Source: a virus (lineage: Duplodnaviria > Heunggongvirae > Uroviricota > Caudoviricetes). Taken from it: a stretch of DNA of 6,210 bases. Location of the stretch: the IMG/VR virus record IMGVR_UViG_2740892432_000002, positions 1 through 6,210 of that record. One strand, written 5' to 3'. The position numbers and the translations under genes are program-made. Below are positions 1 through 6,210 of this stretch, in pieces. How positions within the stretch are numbered: the first letter of the stretch is position 1; every line of letters starts with the position of its first letter. The notes beneath the pieces were generated by a model. It worked only from the letters and a program-made list of their open reading frames with translations, was not told the DNA's origin and did no database searches.

Positions 1-8
1 AGAGACCC

Positions 9-30
9 GGCGGGGGAGAAATCCCCCGCC
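9..30 (+). other. Stable GC-rich hairpin (GGCGGGGGA / GAAA loop / TCCCCCGCC), no U-tract on either strand
   Basis: Perfect 9-bp inverted repeat with a GNRA-type GAAA tetraloop read directly from the sequence. Flanks are not T-rich on either strand, so it is not a canonical intrinsic terminator. Confidence 0.5.
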
Positions 31-69
31 ACCTCTGATGTGTCAGGCATCCTCAACGCACCCGTACTT

Positions 70-93
70 ACCCGCTTCGGCGGGTTTTTTGTT
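70..93 (+). terminator. Rho-independent terminator (ACCCGC / TTCG loop / GCGGGT followed by TTTTTTGTTGT)
   Basis: GC stem with a UUCG-type tetraloop immediately followed by a T6 run. It lies upstream of the first ORF, consistent with the end of an upstream transcription unit (tR-like terminator in a nin-type region). Confidence 0.65.
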
Positions 94-246
94 GTGGTGG
101 AGAAATTAGCTTTTTGTGTACTCTTTTAGCAGTAAGTCTTGAGGGACTGACTGTTGTAAATAGAATCGTGTTTGCTTAGTTAGCGCGCAGGGAGAAGAGG
201 GATGGACCCTTCAGGGGAACGCTATTAATCTGGAAAATTTCTATTT

Positions 247-507
247 ATGGATTTCAAGAAGTTGCGCAAAATTTTTAATAAAGATGGTCTCTATGCTGTG
301 CGCGTTGAAAATGGGGAAATTATTAGTTGTTACTGCATTCATTGCTCACGGGCTTTGCAACAGCCTAGTGGGGCTATGTTAATATATCTCTTGAATGGGC
401 ATGTGACGGACGGATTTATGTTGCGTGAAGATGAATTTGTCACATCATTACGGACATTAAAAGAAATTGGATTAAAAGCTGGCTTTTCTGCTTTTGAAGA
501 CGATTGA
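247..507 (+). CDS. Hypothetical small protein (86 aa), AT-rich codon usage
   Basis: ATG-initiated ORF from the six-frame track. Its stop TGA (505-507) overlaps the TTG at 504 of the next ORF, suggesting operon packing. Only a weak SD-like GGAAAA lies upstream and I recognise no family. Confidence 0.45.
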   Translation: MDFKKLRKIFNKDGLYAVRVENGEIISCYCIHCSRALQQPSGAMLIYLLNGHVTDGFMLREDEFVTSLRTLKEIGLKAGFSAFEDD

Positions 508-584
508 ACTCATCTACAATTCAGCGCAGGGTTGACCCCCTGCTGAGTAACACCGTGCCACCGGAGAAAGCCGATGGCAAGCCG

Positions 585-1184
585 ATGGCACATATACAAC
601 TGATCAAACATACCTCTTCTGGATTACTGCTCCCGGCAACACCGGAGAGTTGCGAATTCTTGCATCAAATAAAAATAGGTGAGTGGATACACGCTGATTT
701 TAAGCGCGTTCGTAACTACGCATTTCACAAGCGTTTTTTCAAACTCCTGCAACTCGGATTCGATTATTGGACTCCTGTCGGTGGGGCGATCACCTCTCGT
801 GAACGAAAACTTGTGTCCGGTTTCGTTGATTATCTGTGTGACTCGGTCGGCCGGGAACATACGCCAGCCCTGAGTGATGCCGCAGAACAATATCTGAATA
901 CCATTGCGATACGCAGAACCTGTGATACGGCATTGCTAAAGTCATTTGATGCTTTCCGTGAATGGGTAACTATTGAGGCCGGATTTTACACCGAGCATTT
1001 TTATCCGGACGGTAGCCGTGGACGCAGGGCAAGATCTATCGCGTTTGCAAATATGGACGATACCGAGTTTCAGCAGGTTTATAAATCCGTACTGAATGTG
1101 CTGTGGAACTGGATCCTGTTCCGTAAATTTTCCTCTCCGGAGGAAGTCGAAAATGTGGCCGCACAGTTACTGGAGTTTGCGTAA
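585..1184 (+). CDS. Lambdoid nin-region protein, DUF1367-like (about 199 aa from ATG 585; the ORF is open from TTG 504)
   Basis: Long + strand ORF directly upstream of a YbcO-like gene and a Q-like gene, a gene order I recall from lambdoid prophages. First in-frame ATG is at 585; the GGAG at 562-565 is rather far from it, so the start is uncertain (alternatives TTG 504, GTG 555). Stop TAA 1182-1184 overlaps the next ATG by 1 nt. Confidence 0.7.
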   Translation: MAHIQLIKHTSSGLLLPATPESCEFLHQIKIGEWIHADFKRVRNYAFHKRFFKLLQLGFDYWTPVGGAITSRERKLVSGFVDYLCDSVGREHTPALSDAAEQYLNTIAIRRTCDTALLKSFDAFREWVTIEAGFYTEHFYPDGSRGRRARSIAFANMDDTEFQQVYKSVLNVLWNWILFRKFSSPEEVENVAAQLLEFA

Positions 1185-1474
1185 TGGTGGATTTACGTAA
1201 AGCGGCGCGGGGGCAGATGTGCACCGTCAGAATTCCTGGCTACTGCAATCACAATCCCGAAACATCTGTGCTGGCGCATTATAGGCTGGCGGGGACGTGC
1301 GGAACAGCGACAAAACCACACGATATGCAGGCAGCGATTGCCTGTAGCTCATGCCACGATTTAATCGACGGGCGGGTAAAAACCAGCGATTACACCAAAG
1401 AAGAATTACGCCTGATGCATGCAGAAGGTGTTTTTCGCACACAAGAAATCTGGAGAAAGGAAGGTTATTTATGA
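1184..1474 (+). CDS. YbcO-like (DUF1364) Cys-rich putative nuclease or zinc-binding protein, 96 aa
   Basis: 96-aa ORF containing several Cys plus a CSSCHD motif; size and position match the YbcO family found just upstream of Q in lambdoid prophages. Start ATG overlaps the upstream stop (TAATG) and its stop overlaps the Q start (ATGA), indicating translational coupling. Confidence 0.75.
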   Translation: MVDLRKAARGQMCTVRIPGYCNHNPETSVLAHYRLAGTCGTATKPHDMQAAIACSSCHDLIDGRVKTSDYTKEELRLMHAEGVFRTQEIWRKEGYL

Positions 1475-2013
1475 TTTACCCAACAAATACAGGCAAAAGC
1501 GGGGAACACCTTCGTCTCACCACGCTGGAAAGTGTCTGGATTCAGGGAAAACTGCGCATGTGGGGGCGCTGGTCGTATATTGGCGGCGGTAAGACGGGAA
1601 ATATGTTTAACCAGTTGCTGGCATCCAAAAAATTGACGAAAACAGCCGTCAATGAAGCCCTGCGCAGGATGAAAAAAGCGGGAATAGAGAAACCTGAGCT
1701 GGAAGCGTTTTTGCGAGAGATGATCAATGGCAAGCAAAAGACCTGGCTGGCGCATTGTACTGATGCAGAGGCGTTATGTATTGATAGAGTCATAAGTGAG
1801 GTGCTGGCAGAGCATCCTGGATTGATTAGTGTCCTCCGGCAACGGTATGAAGGACGGGGGATGACTAAGCGCAAAATGGCTGAATTGCTAAATGATGCAC
1901 ATCCTGAGTGGTGTTTTAGCACATGCGAAAAGCGAATTGCTAATTGGTTGGCTGTTGCTGAGTATGCCCTATATATTCCCATGCGAGAATCATTTGCTCA
2001 AAAAATAGCTTGA
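1471..2013 (+). CDS. Q-like late-gene antitermination protein (180 aa)
   Basis: Last gene before a terminator hairpin and the lysis cassette. Start ATG 1471 has an SD (GGAGAAAGGAAGG) 6 nt upstream and overlaps the upstream stop (ATGA). C-terminal half carries a four-Cys pattern (C-x7-C ... C-x3-C) compatible with the zinc-binding domain of Q proteins. The six-frame track's longer ORF from 1351 overlaps the upstream gene and is treated as a read-through artefact. Confidence 0.7.
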   Translation: MIYPTNTGKSGEHLRLTTLESVWIQGKLRMWGRWSYIGGGKTGNMFNQLLASKKLTKTAVNEALRRMKKAGIEKPELEAFLREMINGKQKTWLAHCTDAEALCIDRVISEVLAEHPGLISVLRQRYEGRGMTKRKMAELLNDAHPEWCFSTCEKRIANWLAVAEYALYIPMRESFAQKIA

Positions 2014-2096
2014 TTTTTTACGCATAAACTGCTTCAATTCCGGTATGCTTCGCAAAGCTGTATCGCGAGGCGAACCAAGCGCATGAACTTTACCAG
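2014..2096 (+). promoter_or_regulatory. Putative late promoter (PR'-like) and Q-utilisation region; exact -35/-10 not resolved
   Basis: Interval between the Q stop and the tR'-like hairpin, where lambdoid phages place PR' and qut. Only weak candidates were found (TTGATT at 2010-2015 with TTCAAT at 2033-2038). Call is by position, not a strong motif. Confidence 0.3.
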
Positions 2097-2125
2097 AACC
2101 CGCCATTGAGCGGGTTTTGTTGTTT
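2097..2125 (+). terminator. tR'-like rho-independent terminator (AACCCGC / CATTGA loop / GCGGGTT followed by TTGTTGTTT)
   Basis: 7-bp GC-rich stem followed by a T-rich tract about 85 nt downstream of the Q stop, the expected position of the terminator that Q-modified RNA polymerase reads through. Confidence 0.65.
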
Positions 2126-2197
2126 CTGGTACTGGCGAACCTGATGTTTCATTTCTGGAGCGCGATTCCTGGCGGAATACCTAGAATCGAGACATTC

Positions 2198-2206
2198 TGG
2201 TAAAAT
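2198..2206 (+). promoter_or_regulatory. Candidate extended -10 promoter (TGg-TAAAAT) for the moron gene
   Basis: TGn immediately upstream of a near-consensus -10 hexamer TAAAAT (2201-2206), about 28 nt before ATG 2235, which has a strong SD (GGAGGTGAG at 2226-2234). No good -35, as is typical of extended -10 promoters. Confidence 0.4.
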
Positions 2207-2234
2207 TGTTTTCAGTACAGGATGTGGAGGTGAG

Positions 2235-2804
2235 ATGAGAGAACTACCTAAAGATTATTTTTTAGGAGTAGATGATGAGCTCGTCGATTATCTTGAAAAA
2301 CAAGGGGAAGAGACGATACGAGAGATTCATCTTTCTAACAAAACCAATGTTGAGAATGGATACAAACTTCTGAACATTCAGATTGTTGGAATTGGTTCAT
2401 CTTTTTTATTGCTGACACAGAAAACTAATTTCGATTTTCTCACCGCCGGAATTACCACATTTACATTACTATGGACATGGTGCGCCATTTACTTGGTATG
2501 TACTGGTTTATCTGTGAAGGTTAGGGGCCTGATCAATGCCCCTCCTGATCATCTATATCATGAAAAATATAAGGATATGGAGCCCTCGAGCTTTAAAATA
2601 TTCGCTGATGCAGGATATTTAGGACCTGATAAGTTATTGCCGCTTATACGAAGGTATCGCCTTGTTGACTTGAGTGATACAGCAAGAGAGTTACTGTTGG
2701 AAAATGAGAAAATCCGCACGAGTCTCGATAAAGCAAGGATGTATACCATCCTTGCTCCGGTAGCGGCGATGTTTATCTCGGCTGTTTTTTTATATGTTCA
2801 ATGA
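2235..2804 (+). CDS. Hypothetical membrane protein, 189 aa, three predicted TM helices; moron between Q/tR' and holin
   Basis: ATG with a strong SD 4 nt upstream. Hydrophobic segments at roughly residues 46-63, 70-92 and 171-189 (C-terminal YTILAPVAAMFISAVFLYV). Acidic N-terminal segment of about 45 aa. Visibly more AT-rich than the flanking phage genes. I recognise no family. Confidence 0.65.
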   Translation: MRELPKDYFLGVDDELVDYLEKQGEETIREIHLSNKTNVENGYKLLNIQIVGIGSSFLLLTQKTNFDFLTAGITTFTLLWTWCAIYLVCTGLSVKVRGLINAPPDHLYHEKYKDMEPSSFKIFADAGYLGPDKLLPLIRRYRLVDLSDTARELLLENEKIRTSLDKARMYTILAPVAAMFISAVFLYVQ

Positions 2805-2934
2805 CTGAGTCGGCAGAATCTCCAACAAAAACACGACGTGTAGCAAAGTCTGTAGTACTTTGTGTTGGAGTTGGTTTTGGTGCCACGGGTTGCTGAGGTT
2901 TATTTTCACCTTGTGGTTTGTTTTTTTCAGACAT
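2773..2934 (-). CDS. Small hypothetical protein, 53 aa (MSEKNKPQGENKPQQPVAPKPTPTQSTTDFATRRVFVGDSADSVIEHIKKQPR), convergent with the moron gene
   Basis: ATG at 2934-2932 (- strand) with SD AGAGGA about 7 nt upstream. A plausible sigma70 -10 (TATATA/TATACT) lies upstream on the - strand near 2990-2998. The six-frame ORF (2773-3165) extends further 5' but the first SD-preceded ATG gives 53 aa. Pro/Gln-rich low-complexity N-terminus; overlaps the 3' end of the 189-aa gene by about 30 nt. Could be spurious. Confidence 0.3.
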   Translation of the reverse strand: MSEKNKPQGENKPQQPVAPKPTPTQSTTDFATRRVFVGDSADSVIEHIKKQPR

Positions 2935-3028
2935 AAAAATCCTCTTTGTTTGAATTGTTACTTTTGGCGATTTAACGATATCAAACACGAGTATATACCG
3001 CCAGAAGCTTAATCTGGCACTCCATCTG

Positions 3029-3056
3029 GCCCCGGCATGTCCCGGGGCTTTTTCGT
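3029..3056 (+). terminator. Rho-independent terminator (GCCCCGG / CATGTC loop / CCGGGGC followed by TTTTTCGTTGTT)
   Basis: Perfect 7-bp GC stem followed by a T5 run on the + strand, about 95 nt upstream of the holin start. It is oriented to stop + strand transcription from the moron promoter before the lysis genes. The - strand flank is not T-rich, so it is unidirectional. Confidence 0.65.
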
Positions 3057-3151
3057 TGTTAGGCTCCGGAAAGATCCTCGACTTCTTGTTAGCAAGCCTG
3101 AGAGCCTGAATCTTACACTTAGCACCATCCGAACTCTCGGAGGTGAGGCTT

Positions 3152-3493
3152 ATGAAAATGCACAATGCCCCTCATTCCTGGCCTGACTTACTGGAACTCT
3201 TACAAAGTTGGTGGCGTGGAGATACGCCGCTGGGTGCAGTGGTTATGTCAATTATTATGGCTGGTTTGCGCATTGCCTATTTTGGCGGTGGCGGCGGCTG
3301 GAAACGAAAAACGCTTGAGATTCTGCTTTGTGGTGCTCTGACGCTGACCTTTGCATCCGCGCTTGAGTATGTCGGATGGCCTAAATCACTTTCTGTTGCC
3401 ATTGGTGGTGGGGTGGGGCTGATTGGTGTTGATGCTATTCGTGGTGCGGCAATGAGGGTCATCGGTAACAAGTTCGGTGCCCATAAGGAGTAA
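3152..3493 (+). CDS. Holin (three predicted TM helices, MKM dual-start motif); not lambda S-like in sequence
   Basis: Sits immediately upstream of the endolysin (stop TAA 3491-3493, R ATG 3497). SD GGAGG at 3139-3143 is 8 nt before ATG 3152, and a second Met follows at codon 3 (M-K-M), as in the lambda S107/S105 holin/antiholin arrangement. An in-frame GTG at 3143 would give MRLMKM. Three hydrophobic helices and a charged C-terminus (RGAAMRVIGNKFGAHKE). Confidence 0.8.
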   Translation: MKMHNAPHSWPDLLELLQSWWRGDTPLGAVVMSIIMAGLRIAYFGGGGGWKRKTLEILLCGALTLTFASALEYVGWPKSLSVAIGGGVGLIGVDAIRGAAMRVIGNKFGAHKE

Positions 3494-3496
3494 TTA

Positions 3497-3973
3497 ATGC
3501 AGACACTTAATTCCCAGCGTAAAGCTTTCCTTGATATGGTGGCATGGTCAGAAGGAACAGATAACGGACGGCAGAAAACCAGAAATCACGGTTATGATGT
3601 TATTGTCGGTGGCGAACTGTTCACTGATTACTCCGATCACCCCCGCAAACTTGTCACGCTAAATCCGAAACTCAAATCAACAGCCGCTGGACGTTACCAG
3701 CTTCTTTCACGCTGGTGGGATGCCTACCGCAAGCAACTTGGCCTGAAAGATTTTTCTCCAGAAAGTCAGGATGCTGTAGCGCTGCAGCAGATTAAAGAGC
3801 GTGGCGCTTTGCCGATGATTGATCGCGGTGATATCCGTCAGGCTATCGACCGTTGCAGCAATATATGGGCTTCACTGCCGGGCGCTGGTTATGGTCAGTT
3901 CGAGCATAAGGCTGACAGTCTGATTGCAAAATTCAAAGAAGCTGGCGGAACGGTCAGAGAGATTGAGGTATGA
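3497..3973 (+). CDS. R: Endolysin, lambda R-type lytic transglycosylase (158 aa)
   Basis: Translation is near-identical over most of its length to lambda R as I recall it ([55 protein letters not shown]...REI.V); only the first ~6 residues differ. Perfect SD AAGGAG 6 nt upstream. Stop overlaps the Rz start (ATGA at 3970-3973). Confidence 0.95.
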
Positions 3974-4434
3974 GCAGAGTAACCGCGATTATCTCCGCTC
4001 TGGTTATCTGCATCGTCGTCTGCCTGTCATGGGGTGTTAATCATTACCGTGATAACGCCATCGCCTACAAAGAACAGCGCGACAAAAATGCCAGAGAACT
4101 GAAGCTGGCGAACGCGGCAATTACTGACATGCAGATGCGTCAGCGTGATGTTGCTGCGCTCGATGCAAAATACACGAAGGAGTTAGCTGATGCGAAAGCT
4201 GAAAATGATGTTCTGCGTGATGATGTTGCCGCTGGTCGTCGTCGGTTGCACATCAAAGCAGTCTGTCAGTCAGTGCGTGAAGCCACCACCGCCTCCGGCG
4301 TGGATAATGCAGCCTCCCCCCGACTGGCAGACACCGCTGAACGGGATTATTTCACCCTCCGGGAACGACTGGTAATGATGCAGGCCCAACTTGAAGGTGC
4401 TCAGCAATACATAACCGAGCAGTGTTTAAAGTAA
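3970..4434 (+). CDS. Rz: Rz i-spanin (inner-membrane spanin subunit), 154 aa
   Basis: N-terminal TM helix ([16 protein letters not shown]) followed by a charged, coiled-coil-like periplasmic domain. Near-identical to lambda Rz from memory. Position after R and the embedded Rz1 confirm the call. Confidence 0.95.
4190..4375 (+). CDS. Rz1: Rz1 o-spanin lipoprotein (61 aa), fully embedded in the +1 frame of Rz
   Basis: Signal peptide with lipobox (LVVVGC), then a Pro-rich mature region ([18 protein letters not shown]). Matches lambda Rz1 and the Rac RzoR as I recall them. Classic embedded-gene architecture. Confidence 0.9.
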
Positions 4435-4514
4435 AATCTTAACTACAATATGATTCATTTTGATGATTGTTTCATAAGGAACAGTGAAGTAAGATCTAAG
4501 AGGAGTTAAATTTT

Positions 4515-4554
4515 ATACAGTATAATCATAATATTGCAGCAAGGTGGTTATAAT
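4515..4554 (+). promoter_or_regulatory. AT-rich putative promoter region for trkG (two consensus TATAAT hexamers at 4521-4526 and 4549-4554)
   Basis: Two perfect -10 hexamers in the very AT-rich intergenic region between Rz and trkG. No convincing -35 was found. Call is by motif only. Confidence 0.3.
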
Positions 4555-4571
4555 TGAAAGAATATTTAGAT

Positions 4572-6029
4572 ATGAATACATCTCATGTAAGAGTTGTTAC
4601 TCATATGTGTGGGTTCCTGGTTTGGCTCTATAGTCTTTCAATGTTGCCACCAATGGTTGTAGCATTGTTTTATAAAGAAAAAAGCCTGTTCGTTTTCTTA
4701 ATAACTTTCGTTATATTTTTTTGCATTGGTGGCGGAGCGTGGTATACAACTAAGAAATCTGGCATTCAATTACGTACCCGTGATGGGTTTATTATAATTG
4801 TAATGTTTTGGATTTTGTTTTCTGTTATTAGTGCATTCCCTTTATGGATTGACTCAGAACTTAATTTAACGTTCATTGATGCTCTGTTTGAAGGGGTTTC
4901 TGGAATAACAACAACAGGAGCAACTGTAATTGATGATGTTAGTTCATTACCTCGGGCATATTTGTACTATCGGTCACAGTTAAATTTTATAGGTGGTTTA
5001 GGAGTTATTGTTCTGGCGGTTGCTGTATTGCCATTATTGGGTATTGGTGGTGCAAAGCTTTATCAGTCAGAAATGCCGGGGCCATTTAAGGATGACAAAC
5101 TCACTCCCCGCCTGGCCGATACGTCACGGACACTGTGGATAACTTATTCTTTATTAGGTATTGCTTGTATTGTCTGTTATAGACTTGCAGGAATGCCTTT
5201 GTTTGATGCTATTTGTCACGGGATTTCCACAGTTTCGCTTGGTGGTTTCTCAACTCATAGCGAGAGTATCGGATATTTTAATAACTATTTGGTTGAGCTG
5301 GTGGCTGGTTCTTTTTCCCTGCTATCGGCTTTCAACTTCACTCTTTGGTATATTGTTATTAGCAGGAAAACGATAAAACCTTTAATCAGAGATATTGAAC
5401 TTCGTTTCTTTCTGTTAATAGCCTTAGGGGTGATCATTGTTACCTCTTTCCAGGTCTGGCATATAGGTATGTATGACTTGCATGGAAGTTTTATTCATTC
5501 GTTTTTTCTTGCCAGCTCCATGCTCACTGATAATGGTTTAGCTACGCAGGATTATGCAAGTTGGCCCACGCACACGATAGTGTTTTTGCTGTTGTCAAGT
5601 TTCTTTGGGGGATGTATAGGTTCAACTTGTGGTGGAATTAAGTCACTTCGATTTCTTATACTTTTCAAACAAAGCAAACACGAGATAAATCAGCTTTCTC
5701 ATCCCAGAGCGTTGTTGAGTGTAAATGTAGGAGGGAAGATAGTTACAGATCGTGTAATGAGGTCTGTATGGAGTTTCTTTTTTCTTTATACTCTCTTCAC
5801 GGTGTTTTTTATACTGGTGTTAAATGGTATGGGATATGATTTTCTTACATCATTTGCAACAGTGGCTGCATGTATTAATAATATGGGATTAGGTTTTGGG
5901 GCTACTGCATCGTCATTCGGAGTGCTTAATGACATTGCAAAATGTTTAATGTGCATAGCTATGATTCTTGGTCGCCTTGAAATTTATCCTGTTATTATAT
6001 TGTTTTCAGGTTTTTTTTGGCGCTCCTAA
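4572..6029 (+). CDS. trkG: TrkG/TrkH-family potassium uptake membrane protein (485 aa from ATG 4572)
   Basis: Long polytopic membrane protein with repeated Gly-rich selectivity-filter-like motifs (GITTTGATV, GGFSTH, GLATQDY, NNMGLGFG). N-terminus MNTSHVRVVTHM matches Rac-prophage TrkG as I recall it. Markedly AT-rich compared with the adjacent lysis genes. An in-frame TTG at 4554 has a better-placed SD (AAGGTGG at 4541-4547), so the true start may be 6 codons upstream. Confidence 0.93.
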   Translation: MNTSHVRVVTHMCGFLVWLYSLSMLPPMVVALFYKEKSLFVFLITFVIFFCIGGGAWYTTKKSGIQLRTRDGFIIIVMFWILFSVISAFPLWIDSELNLTFIDALFEGVSGITTTGATVIDDVSSLPRAYLYYRSQLNFIGGLGVIVLAVAVLPLLGIGGAKLYQSEMPGPFKDDKLTPRLADTSRTLWITYSLLGIACIVCYRLAGMPLFDAICHGISTVSLGGFSTHSESIGYFNNYLVELVAGSFSLLSAFNFTLWYIVISRKTIKPLIRDIELRFFLLIALGVIIVTSFQVWHIGMYDLHGSFIHSFFLASSMLTDNGLATQDYASWPTHTIVFLLLSSFFGGCIGSTCGGIKSLRFLILFKQSKHEINQLSHPRALLSVNVGGKIVTDRVMRSVWSFFFLYTLFTVFFILVLNGMGYDFLTSFATVAACINNMGLGFGATASSFGVLNDIAKCLMCIAMILGRLEIYPVIILFSGFFWRS

Positions 6030-6063
6030 TATATGGCTGATTTATAATTGTGAGTTTAATATT

Positions 6064-6204
6064 ATGTTGACTCACTCATTGATCCAATACCTAACTTTAC
6101 CAGCAACACCTCCGTCCCCAGTAGCACTGGCTGCTGGGGTGCGTTTTATTCATAAAGCAAGGCTGTATGAGCGAGAAATTAAAGATGATCTTACCCAGCA
6201 ATAG
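6064..6204 (+). CDS. Small hypothetical ORF (46 aa) downstream of trkG; uncertain
   Basis: ATG 6064 in frame with track ORF 5968-6204; the upstream part overlaps trkG and is rejected. Only a weak SD. Alternatively, an ATG at 6185 (MILPSNSG...) in another frame may start a gene that runs off the window end (possibly the Rac ynaK homologue; not verifiable here). Confidence 0.2.
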   Translation: MLTHSLIQYLTLPATPPSPVALAAGVRFIHKARLYEREIKDDLTQQ

Positions 6205-6210
6205 TGGACA

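Follow-up and report, generated by a model that had tools for sequence, protein, structure and literature searches.

The 6,210-nt stretch analysed here (positions 1 to 6,210 of IMG/VR virus record IMGVR_UViG_2740892432_000002), hereafter called the window, covers the part of a Rac-like lambdoid Escherichia coli prophage that holds its late-regulatory and lysis functions. It contains on its plus strand, at positions 1471–2013, a gene for a protein of 180 amino acids (aa) that we assign to the Q-type antiterminators, and more precisely to the DUF1133 family, which forms a distant branch among the Q proteins of the phage 21 type. The open reading frame (ORF) starts with an ATG at 1471 and ends with a TGA at 2011–2013, and the coordinates given for it in a preliminary description of the window were correct. 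On the same strand, the region directly downstream contains a candidate −35 hexamer overlapping the stop codon, a candidate extended −10, a −10-like element, a conserved leader segment and an intrinsic terminator, tR'. The lysis genes, which are the presumed target of antitermination, are located further downstream.

Profile searches with the product of the Q ORF resulted in a match to PF06576 (DUF1133) of 362.7 bits (cut-off 23.1; E = 2.8e-109), which is full-length (residues 1–175 of 176 profile positions). With 28.0 bits (cut-off 26), the protein also qualified as a match to PF06530, to which the Q proteins of phages 21 and 933W belong, and in the reciprocal test Q21, the Q protein of phage 21, obtained 22 bits on the DUF1133 profile (cut-off 23.1). 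In PHROGs it falls in phrog_753, “anti-termination protein Q-like”; zero NCBIfam models matched it, and the majority of the 892 related clusters that were found carry the name “DUF1133 family protein”. No unrelated family was returned, and the view of the preliminary description that the gene encodes a Q-like antiterminator is therefore upheld. That description had also considered the protein to be unlike lambda Q. Indeed, neither the lambda-type Q family (PF03589) nor the phage 82-type family (PF06323) gave a match at E ≤ 0.01.

Structural comparisons pointed in the same direction. A search of the Protein Data Bank (PDB) with the single sequence was only suggestive (E = 0.15), and a family profile was needed; the profile constructed from 85 family members retrieved only Q21 chains (6jnx and 6p18; E = 2.6e-6). 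Homology with Q21 (PDB 6P18, 6P19 and 6JNX; PF06530) is near-full-length: hhalign (94.5%, E = 7.7e-8, 134 columns) aligned residues 14–179 of the window protein with Q21 residues 6–152, and the identity between the two proteins is only ~15%. They have in common the N-terminal motif LxLT..W..G.L..WG.W.Y.G, which is the most conserved block across the DUF1133 family. When the AlphaFold model was compared with the PDB using Foldseek, the top twelve matches were all Q21 chains (probability 0.99–1.00, target TM 0.56–0.64, E about 1e-2), and the matches after these had a probability below 0.1. In the Q21 fold, an N-terminal helix packs on a helix-turn-helix body resembling sigma region 4. The mean predicted local distance difference test score (pLDDT) of the model is 66, and the model is confident only at residues ~100–175; because the pLDDT is below 50 at residues 1–44 and 89–96, only its C-terminal body is reliable. 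On these sequence comparisons, the ORF product belongs to the DUF1133 branch of the Q proteins and is a distant, clear homologue of Q21.

We then compared the regions located 3' of the Q gene in 25 species-level genome loci, 80 IMG/VR loci, two distant phages and phage 21, with the phage 21 locus being recovered through the published binding-site sequence. The IMG/VR loci are all relatives with at least 92% identity; they were used for the conservation footprint and added no diversity. Loci were aligned by anchoring on the −10-like hexamer TA(N)GCT. The anchored loci have one layout, and the exceptions are the isrK-type loci L005 and L008, Pantoea locus L011, 933W, the indel variant L038, and L002, which has TAAGAT. 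In the window, the −35 TTGATT is followed by a 17-nt spacer (tt-TTACGC-at-AAACTG-c), the −10 TTCAAT, 5 nt, TATGCT, the conserved leader and the terminator. In phage 21, the −35 TTGACA is followed by tcat-TGAGCA-aa-TGAGC, the −10 AACACT, 7 nt, TAAGCT and a terminator. The Providencia phage locus (41% identity) contains TTGACT-16-TATAGT, 7 nt, TATGCT and a terminator, and the Edwardsiella phage locus (31% identity) contains TTGACA-16-TAGTAT, 7 nt, TACGCT and a terminator; the promoters of both are near-consensus. Relatives with as little as 31% identity thus show the arrangement in which a −35 over the stop codon is followed by a −10, a −10-like element and, close by, a terminator.

An alignment with the late promoter of phage 21 had been proposed as a check in the preliminary description, and in our comparison the elements of the two loci line up in order and spacing: a −35, a spacer with two 6-bp sites (candidate sites in the window) whose period is 8 bp, a −10, a gap of 5–7 nt, TA(N)GCT and a terminator. 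Judged by sequence, the cis elements of the window thus match the phage 21 late promoter column by column and are conserved in relatives. The loci differ in that the −35 of phage 21 is located 6 nt after the stop codon, whereas that of the window overlaps it and is combined with an extended −10. Our numbering of the phage 21 locus reproduces the published C-21, C-13 and a bubble from +3 (positions from PMC6606751), and its TAAGCT, at +2 to +7, is therefore the known sigma-dependent pause element.

The candidate −35 of the window, TTGATT (2010–2015), had already been noted to overlap the Q stop codon. It is invariant in 30 distinct close relatives, and in distant relatives and phage 21 the same column is occupied by TTGACT, TTGACA, TTGCAA or TTGAAA at an equal distance from the −10-like element. 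The extended −10 (2030–2038) consists of TG (2030–2031), c and the hexamer TTCAAT (2033–2038), positioned 17 nt after the −35. Across the 30 close relatives, the hexamer shows a single change, giving TTTAAT, and the TGn that precedes it is kept in most clades. The next 5 nt (2039–2043) are hypervariable in the same relatives. They are followed by TATGCT (2044–2049), a candidate sigma-dependent pause element that reads TA(N)GCT in relatives; in the close ones T, A, G, C and T are fixed and the third base is free (T/C/A), as expected of a −10-like element. Transcription is predicted to start at 2043–2046. No promoter with at least 9 of 12 consensus positions is present between the stop codon and the terminator, which agrees with the earlier statement that this interval lacks a near-consensus sigma-70 promoter; the nearest 9/12 match is located inside the gene, at 1948–1977. 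The window shows no enrichment of matches to the promoter consensus (7 versus 12.0 ± 3.4 expected from shuffled sequences), and because their number is below the shuffled expectation, the promoter assignment rests on comparative evidence.

Directly after TATGCT lies the leader segment TCGCAAAGCTGTATCGCGAGGCGA (2050–2073), which is almost invariant in close relatives and beyond which, after 2074, the sequence varies freely. Its core motif, CGAAGCTG, recurs in the Providencia and Edwardsiella phage loci. Although the leader RNA of the window alone folds with a z-score of −2.1, RNAalifold did not detect a leader hairpin common to the distant relatives, and an explanation of the conserved leader by RNA structure was therefore dropped. 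The segment may be part of a pause/escape signal, or may reflect a role as a small RNA (sRNA). An Rfam scan of the 2045–2125 leader did not give a match at E ≤ 1, including to isrK (RF01394). A window-type leader, TATGCTTCGCAAAGCTGTATCGC, was also seen in the locus L012 of Escherichia sp. ESNIH1 (positions 3030–3120), which is a recombinant; because the Q C-terminus and a TGAGCC spacer of the subgroup with Q proteins of 192 aa are joined there to this leader, the exchange point is the promoter.

The terminator tR' (2094–2125) is formed by a stem (2094–2103/2110–2119) of 10 pairs, 6 of them G-C, the loop CATTGA and a T-rich tail to 2125. It is among the strongest of the terminator-like sites of the window, of which 10 were found versus 6.2 ± 2.3 expected. 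In almost all relatives the corresponding place is also occupied by an intrinsic terminator, and the stem sequences differ. The predicted terminated RNA is about 78 nt long. The distance from the stop codon to the stem, previously put at about 85 nt, is 80 nt. Since it is ~90 nt in phage 21 and ~48 nt in 933W, a short interval is normal for the Q family. The preliminary description had offered two explanations for it. The first, in which the promoter is embedded in the end of Q and only a very short leader precedes tR', fits a layout that recurs to 31% identity and in phage 21, and the similar annotation of 933W. The second, a late promoter of atypical architecture, did not hold, as Q proteins of the phage 21 family typically have this layout; the −10 belongs to the extended (TGn) type.

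The promoter spacer contains a candidate Q-binding element composed of TTACGC (2018–2023), AT and AAACTG (2026–2031), which occupy the columns of the two TGAGCA subsites of phage 21. Across clades, residues of the recognition helix vary in concert with the hexamer that stands where phage 21 has its first subsite. Proteins with the helix TCRR, as in Q21, are accompanied by TGAGCA or TGAGCC (TGAACC in L010), and their hexamer is located 22 bp from the −10-like element, which is exactly the phage 21 distance. The helix TCE[TSN]R goes with TTGCGC, the helix TCEK of the window with TTACGC, and the helix T[YH]Q[DN] with TTACCG. The base-contacting residues R127 and R128 of Q21 correspond to EK in the window protein. 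Most clades have a similar second hexamer, AAA(C/G)TG, which overlaps the extended −10. At the positions of Q21 R127/R128 there may be a simple, rewritable specificity code, with RR corresponding to TGAGCA, E[TSN] to TTGCGC, EK to TTACGC and Q[DN] to TTACCG.

A comparison with other systems places the locus further. IsrK is an sRNA of Gifsy-1 that is encoded just 3' of the Q-like gene antQ and, according to the study describing it (PMC4825925), its promoter gives rise to both the terminated sRNA and a read-through transcript. Gifsy-1 itself was absent from the phage-collection matches. In L005 (E. coli) and L008 (Salmonella), which belong to the 184-aa DUF1133 subgroup, the promoter TTGACT-18-TATATT has its −35 over the stop codon, and 7 nt separate its end from position 1 of the isrK model (RF01394), which scores 75.6 and 67.1 bits, above the gathering score. 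Since isrK directly adjoins DUF1133 genes in these two loci, gene order suggests that AntQ is a DUF1133 protein. Because isrK follows the 184-aa subgroup, one member of the family would already be partly characterised, and the production of a short terminated RNA from this promoter position is documented. The two systems would also resemble each other in that part of the transcription continues past the end of the short terminated RNA into the genes downstream. They differ in the C-terminal recognition region (TCCSRVD in the AntQ type), in the promoter spacer and leader, and in the genes that follow, which are a P1-type C4/antirepressor module in Gifsy-1 and a membrane protein and lysis genes in the window.

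Some additional isrK-related observations were made. At positions 3075–3276 of L005 and L008, the true isrK overlaps a c4-a1b1 match and has a C4 antisense RNA match after it; the late leader of the 184-aa subgroup therefore doubles as a P1-type antirepressor immunity module. L005 contains a second, weak isrK-like match, also upstream of its Q gene. The window itself contains an isrK-like RNA shape at positions 10–90 (plus strand), upstream of nin-like genes, consisting of the hairpin GGCGGGGGAGAAATCCCCCGCC and the terminator ACCCGCTTCGGCGGGTTTTTT. Its score on RF01394 is 33.2 bits (E = 2e-4), which is below the gathering score of 50, and no Q gene precedes it within the window.

Like the window, 933W has a PF06530 Q, an annotated pR' that overlaps the 3' end of Q, a first terminator soon after the stop codon (~48 nt, as mentioned), and accessory or toxin genes between the terminator and the lysis genes. 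The terminator stem of 933W is nearly identical to that of the window (AACCCGCC...GCGGGTTTTT). At the sequence level, however, its Q belongs to another Pfam family, and several terminators, tRNA genes and stx2 precede the lysis genes. The lambda Q/PR' system (PF03589) follows the same functional logic: its spacer contains the binding site, the transcript begins with a −10-like pause element, and the short RNA that is terminated is known as 6S RNA. Lambda Q has a zinc finger and no sequence match to the window protein, and the lambda leader is 194 nt long.

These results are best explained if the locus carries an ordinary Q21-type cassette, for which we estimate a probability of about three in four. 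Family membership, fold similarity, and the match and conservation of the cis elements form its basis, and homology with Q21 would extend it to the transcription start, the pause, DNA binding and antitermination. According to this model, host sigma-70 RNA polymerase would initiate at about 2045 from the −35 TTGATT and the extended −10 TGcTTCAAT. Sigma would then re-bind at TATGCT (2044–2049), causing the polymerase to pause about 12–16 nt further on. Without Q, transcription would terminate at 2094–2125 and the ~78-nt RNA would be released. When Q is present, its C-terminal helix-turn-helix would bind the promoter spacer, with TTACGC-AT-AAACTG (2018–2031) as the candidate site, after which Q would move onto the paused polymerase and narrow the RNA-exit channel. 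The polymerase modified in this way would read through 2094–2125, and also through a second terminator at 3028–3055, into the holin, lysis-enzyme and Rz genes.

Several points do not sit easily with a standard Q21-type cassette. Only 8 of the 12 consensus positions are matched by the promoter, and the A that is normally critical at position 2 of the −10 is missing. TTACGC and AAACTG do not form a clear direct repeat, unlike the sites of phage 21 (TGAGCA twice, bound by two protomers), and have only A3 and C4 in common. According to the Q21 preprint, the segment between the N-terminal motif and the body of Q21 forms the exit-channel ring, and in the window protein this segment is ~29 residues longer. 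The model has low confidence in the same region (pLDDT below 50 at residues 1–44, against a mean of 66). The long helix-turn-helix loop by which Q21 enters the minor groove (with R113) was not found, as the alignments show a deletion of ~13 residues there. With respect to AntQ, the passages of the study that were considered report global effects and do not show read-through at AntQ's own terminator (PMC4825925). Finally, the covariation between helix and site spans only about five clades, and because the site is located within 100 bp of the helix codons, co-inheritance accounts for part of it. Physical linkage leaves unexplained, though, that Q21 and DUF1133 proteins, which are ~15% identical, agree on both RR and TGAGCA.

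Some of these differences may be taken to mean that DUF1133 proteins employ a structurally distinct version of the Q21 mechanism, with an enlarged exit-channel segment, a truncated DNA-binding loop and a two-part site, together with the specificity code mentioned above and possibly a leader sRNA acting in trans. The two-part site may consist of a variable specificity hexamer and the conserved AAA(C/G)TG overlapping the extended −10, and the terminated ~78-nt leader, which shows unusual conservation over its first 25–30 nt, could work in trans in the manner of the small RNAs IsrK and StxS. We put this forward tentatively, and consider it unlikely in its entirety.

It is improbable that TATGCT (2044–2049) is the true −10, with transcription starting near 2056 and TTCAAT having no promoter role. 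TATGCT does have the key T, A and final T that are partly missing from TTCAAT, and several 192-aa loci carry TGn directly before TAGGCT or TAAGCT. However, the conserved −35 would then be located 28–29 bp upstream, which is too far, and distant relatives show clear −35/16/−10 pairs 5' of TA(N)GCT. Moreover, the TAAGCT of phage 21 with which it aligns corresponds to +2 to +7 of a mapped transcript and is the sigma-bound pause element, and the window contains no second −10-like element 3' of TATGCT.

The protein might also be a DNA-binding regulator resembling sigma region 4 that acts on the adjacent promoter and is not a processive antiterminator, in which case the hairpin at 2094–2125 would just end the early operon. 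The confident part of the model is indeed the helix-turn-helix body only, and the ring region of Q21 is remodelled by the insertion of 29 residues. We nevertheless give this explanation a small chance of being correct: conservation across the family is highest in the N-terminal motif that it has in common with Q21, simple activation would give no role to a −10-like element conserved early in the transcribed region, and the order promoter–terminator–lysis genes is that of a Q cassette. Furthermore, overexpression of antQ is toxic and Rho relieves the toxicity (PMC4825925).

That the late promoter is instead the internal TTGGCT-18-TATATT (1948–1977), with a leader of ~140 nt and with the post-stop elements being incidental, is very improbable. 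Although no other sigma-70 match near the end of the Q gene reaches 9/12, its hexamers vary at synonymous sites in close relatives (two positions of TTGGCT, five of the six of TATATT), it is absent in the 184- and 192-aa subgroups and in the distant phages, and, as stated, such matches are not enriched in the window. We rejected it for lack of conservation.

The preliminary description had based the Q assignment in part on a motif of four cysteines. The protein does contain four cysteines, C96, C103, C148 and C152, and the C-x3-C is present; the first pair, however, reads C-x6-C and not C-x7-C, and the motif is not a valid basis for the assignment. Only C96 and C152, which align with C58 and C126 of Q21, are invariant among 24 distinct relatives, and C152 is Y or H in two more distant phage homologues. 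In the other relatives, C103 is replaced by L, K, I, V or M and C148 by G, T or S; because these two are not conserved, the four-cysteine pattern is a subgroup coincidence and not a family motif. A zinc site like the zinc finger of lambda Q, which the presence of both C-x6-C and C-x3-C could suggest, is scarcely credible and was rejected on cysteine conservation: C103 and C148 are aliphatic or small residues in most relatives, C96 and C152 are the counterparts of Q21 C58 and C126, one of the two mentions of zinc in the Q21 preprint concerns the zinc-binding domain of the polymerase and not Q21, and the protein lacks a match to the lambda Q family.

The genes surrounding the Q cassette are, like the cassette itself, on the plus strand. 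A DUF1367 gene comes first and is located upstream of a YbcO-type nuclease gene (1184–1474), whose stop codon overlaps the ATG of the Q gene in the sequence ATGA (1471–1474). Between tR' and the lysis genes there is a slot for accessory genes, which holds eplBA in Rac-SA53 and stx2 in 933W. In the window it is occupied by a gene encoding a predicted membrane protein of 189 aa (2235–2804; phrog_11870) without a Pfam or NCBIfam match. A minus-strand ORF of 53 aa (about 2776–2935; phrog_14506) overlaps the 3' end of this gene, and in strain LD27-1 an IS150 insertion is present just 3' of it. The second intrinsic terminator (3028–3055), which is also strong, has a stem of 8 pairs, of which 7 are G-C, and then a T-run. 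It lies just 5' of the holin gene, so that a Q-modified polymerase would have at least two terminators to pass. The lysis cassette (3152–4434) comprises a lambda-type holin (3152–3493; TIGR01594, PF05106), a lambda-R-like lysis enzyme (3497–3973; RefSeq name GH24), Rz (3970–4434; PF03245; RefSeq name lysis protein) and Rz1, which is embedded in Rz (4190–4375). It is followed on the same strand by trkG (4572–6029), which could be reachable by read-through from the late promoter.

Because Rz/Rz1 is followed by trkG, with ynaK as the next gene in matching genomes (LD27-1, for example), the window corresponds to the Rac locus; identical DNA is located beside ynaK in many E. coli chromosomes. Matching DNA was found in 1765 of 5426 complete E. 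coli genomes, 785 of which hold at least 80% of the 760-bp query. About one in three complete E. coli genomes has the Q module, which is common and ordinary. RefSeq labels the ORF “DUF1133 family protein”, and GenBank phage records including Rac-SA53 and vB_EcoS-666R9 label it “antitermination protein Q”. One survey of Stx phages already tags the DUF1133 Q branch as “Q-like” (PMC8136144). A literature search on Rac-SA53 or the LT-II prophage yielded no useful description.

The kind of system is thus known, and the branch is already called “Q-like” in PHROGs and some GenBank records; the locus is a new and very common member of it. The finding is real but ordinary, and its interest is modest, lying in annotation and in a route to specificity rules of the Q family. 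DUF1133 genes could be annotated properly as Q21-type antiterminators, and the cassette predicts that the genes downstream of it are switched on at prophage induction. This concerns toxin and accessory genes as well, as the DUF1133 Q gene sits 5' of slots for these, such as those of EplBA and LT-II in Rac-SA53. Finally, the match between the recognition helix and the spacer hexamer would constitute a testable specificity code for the Q family.

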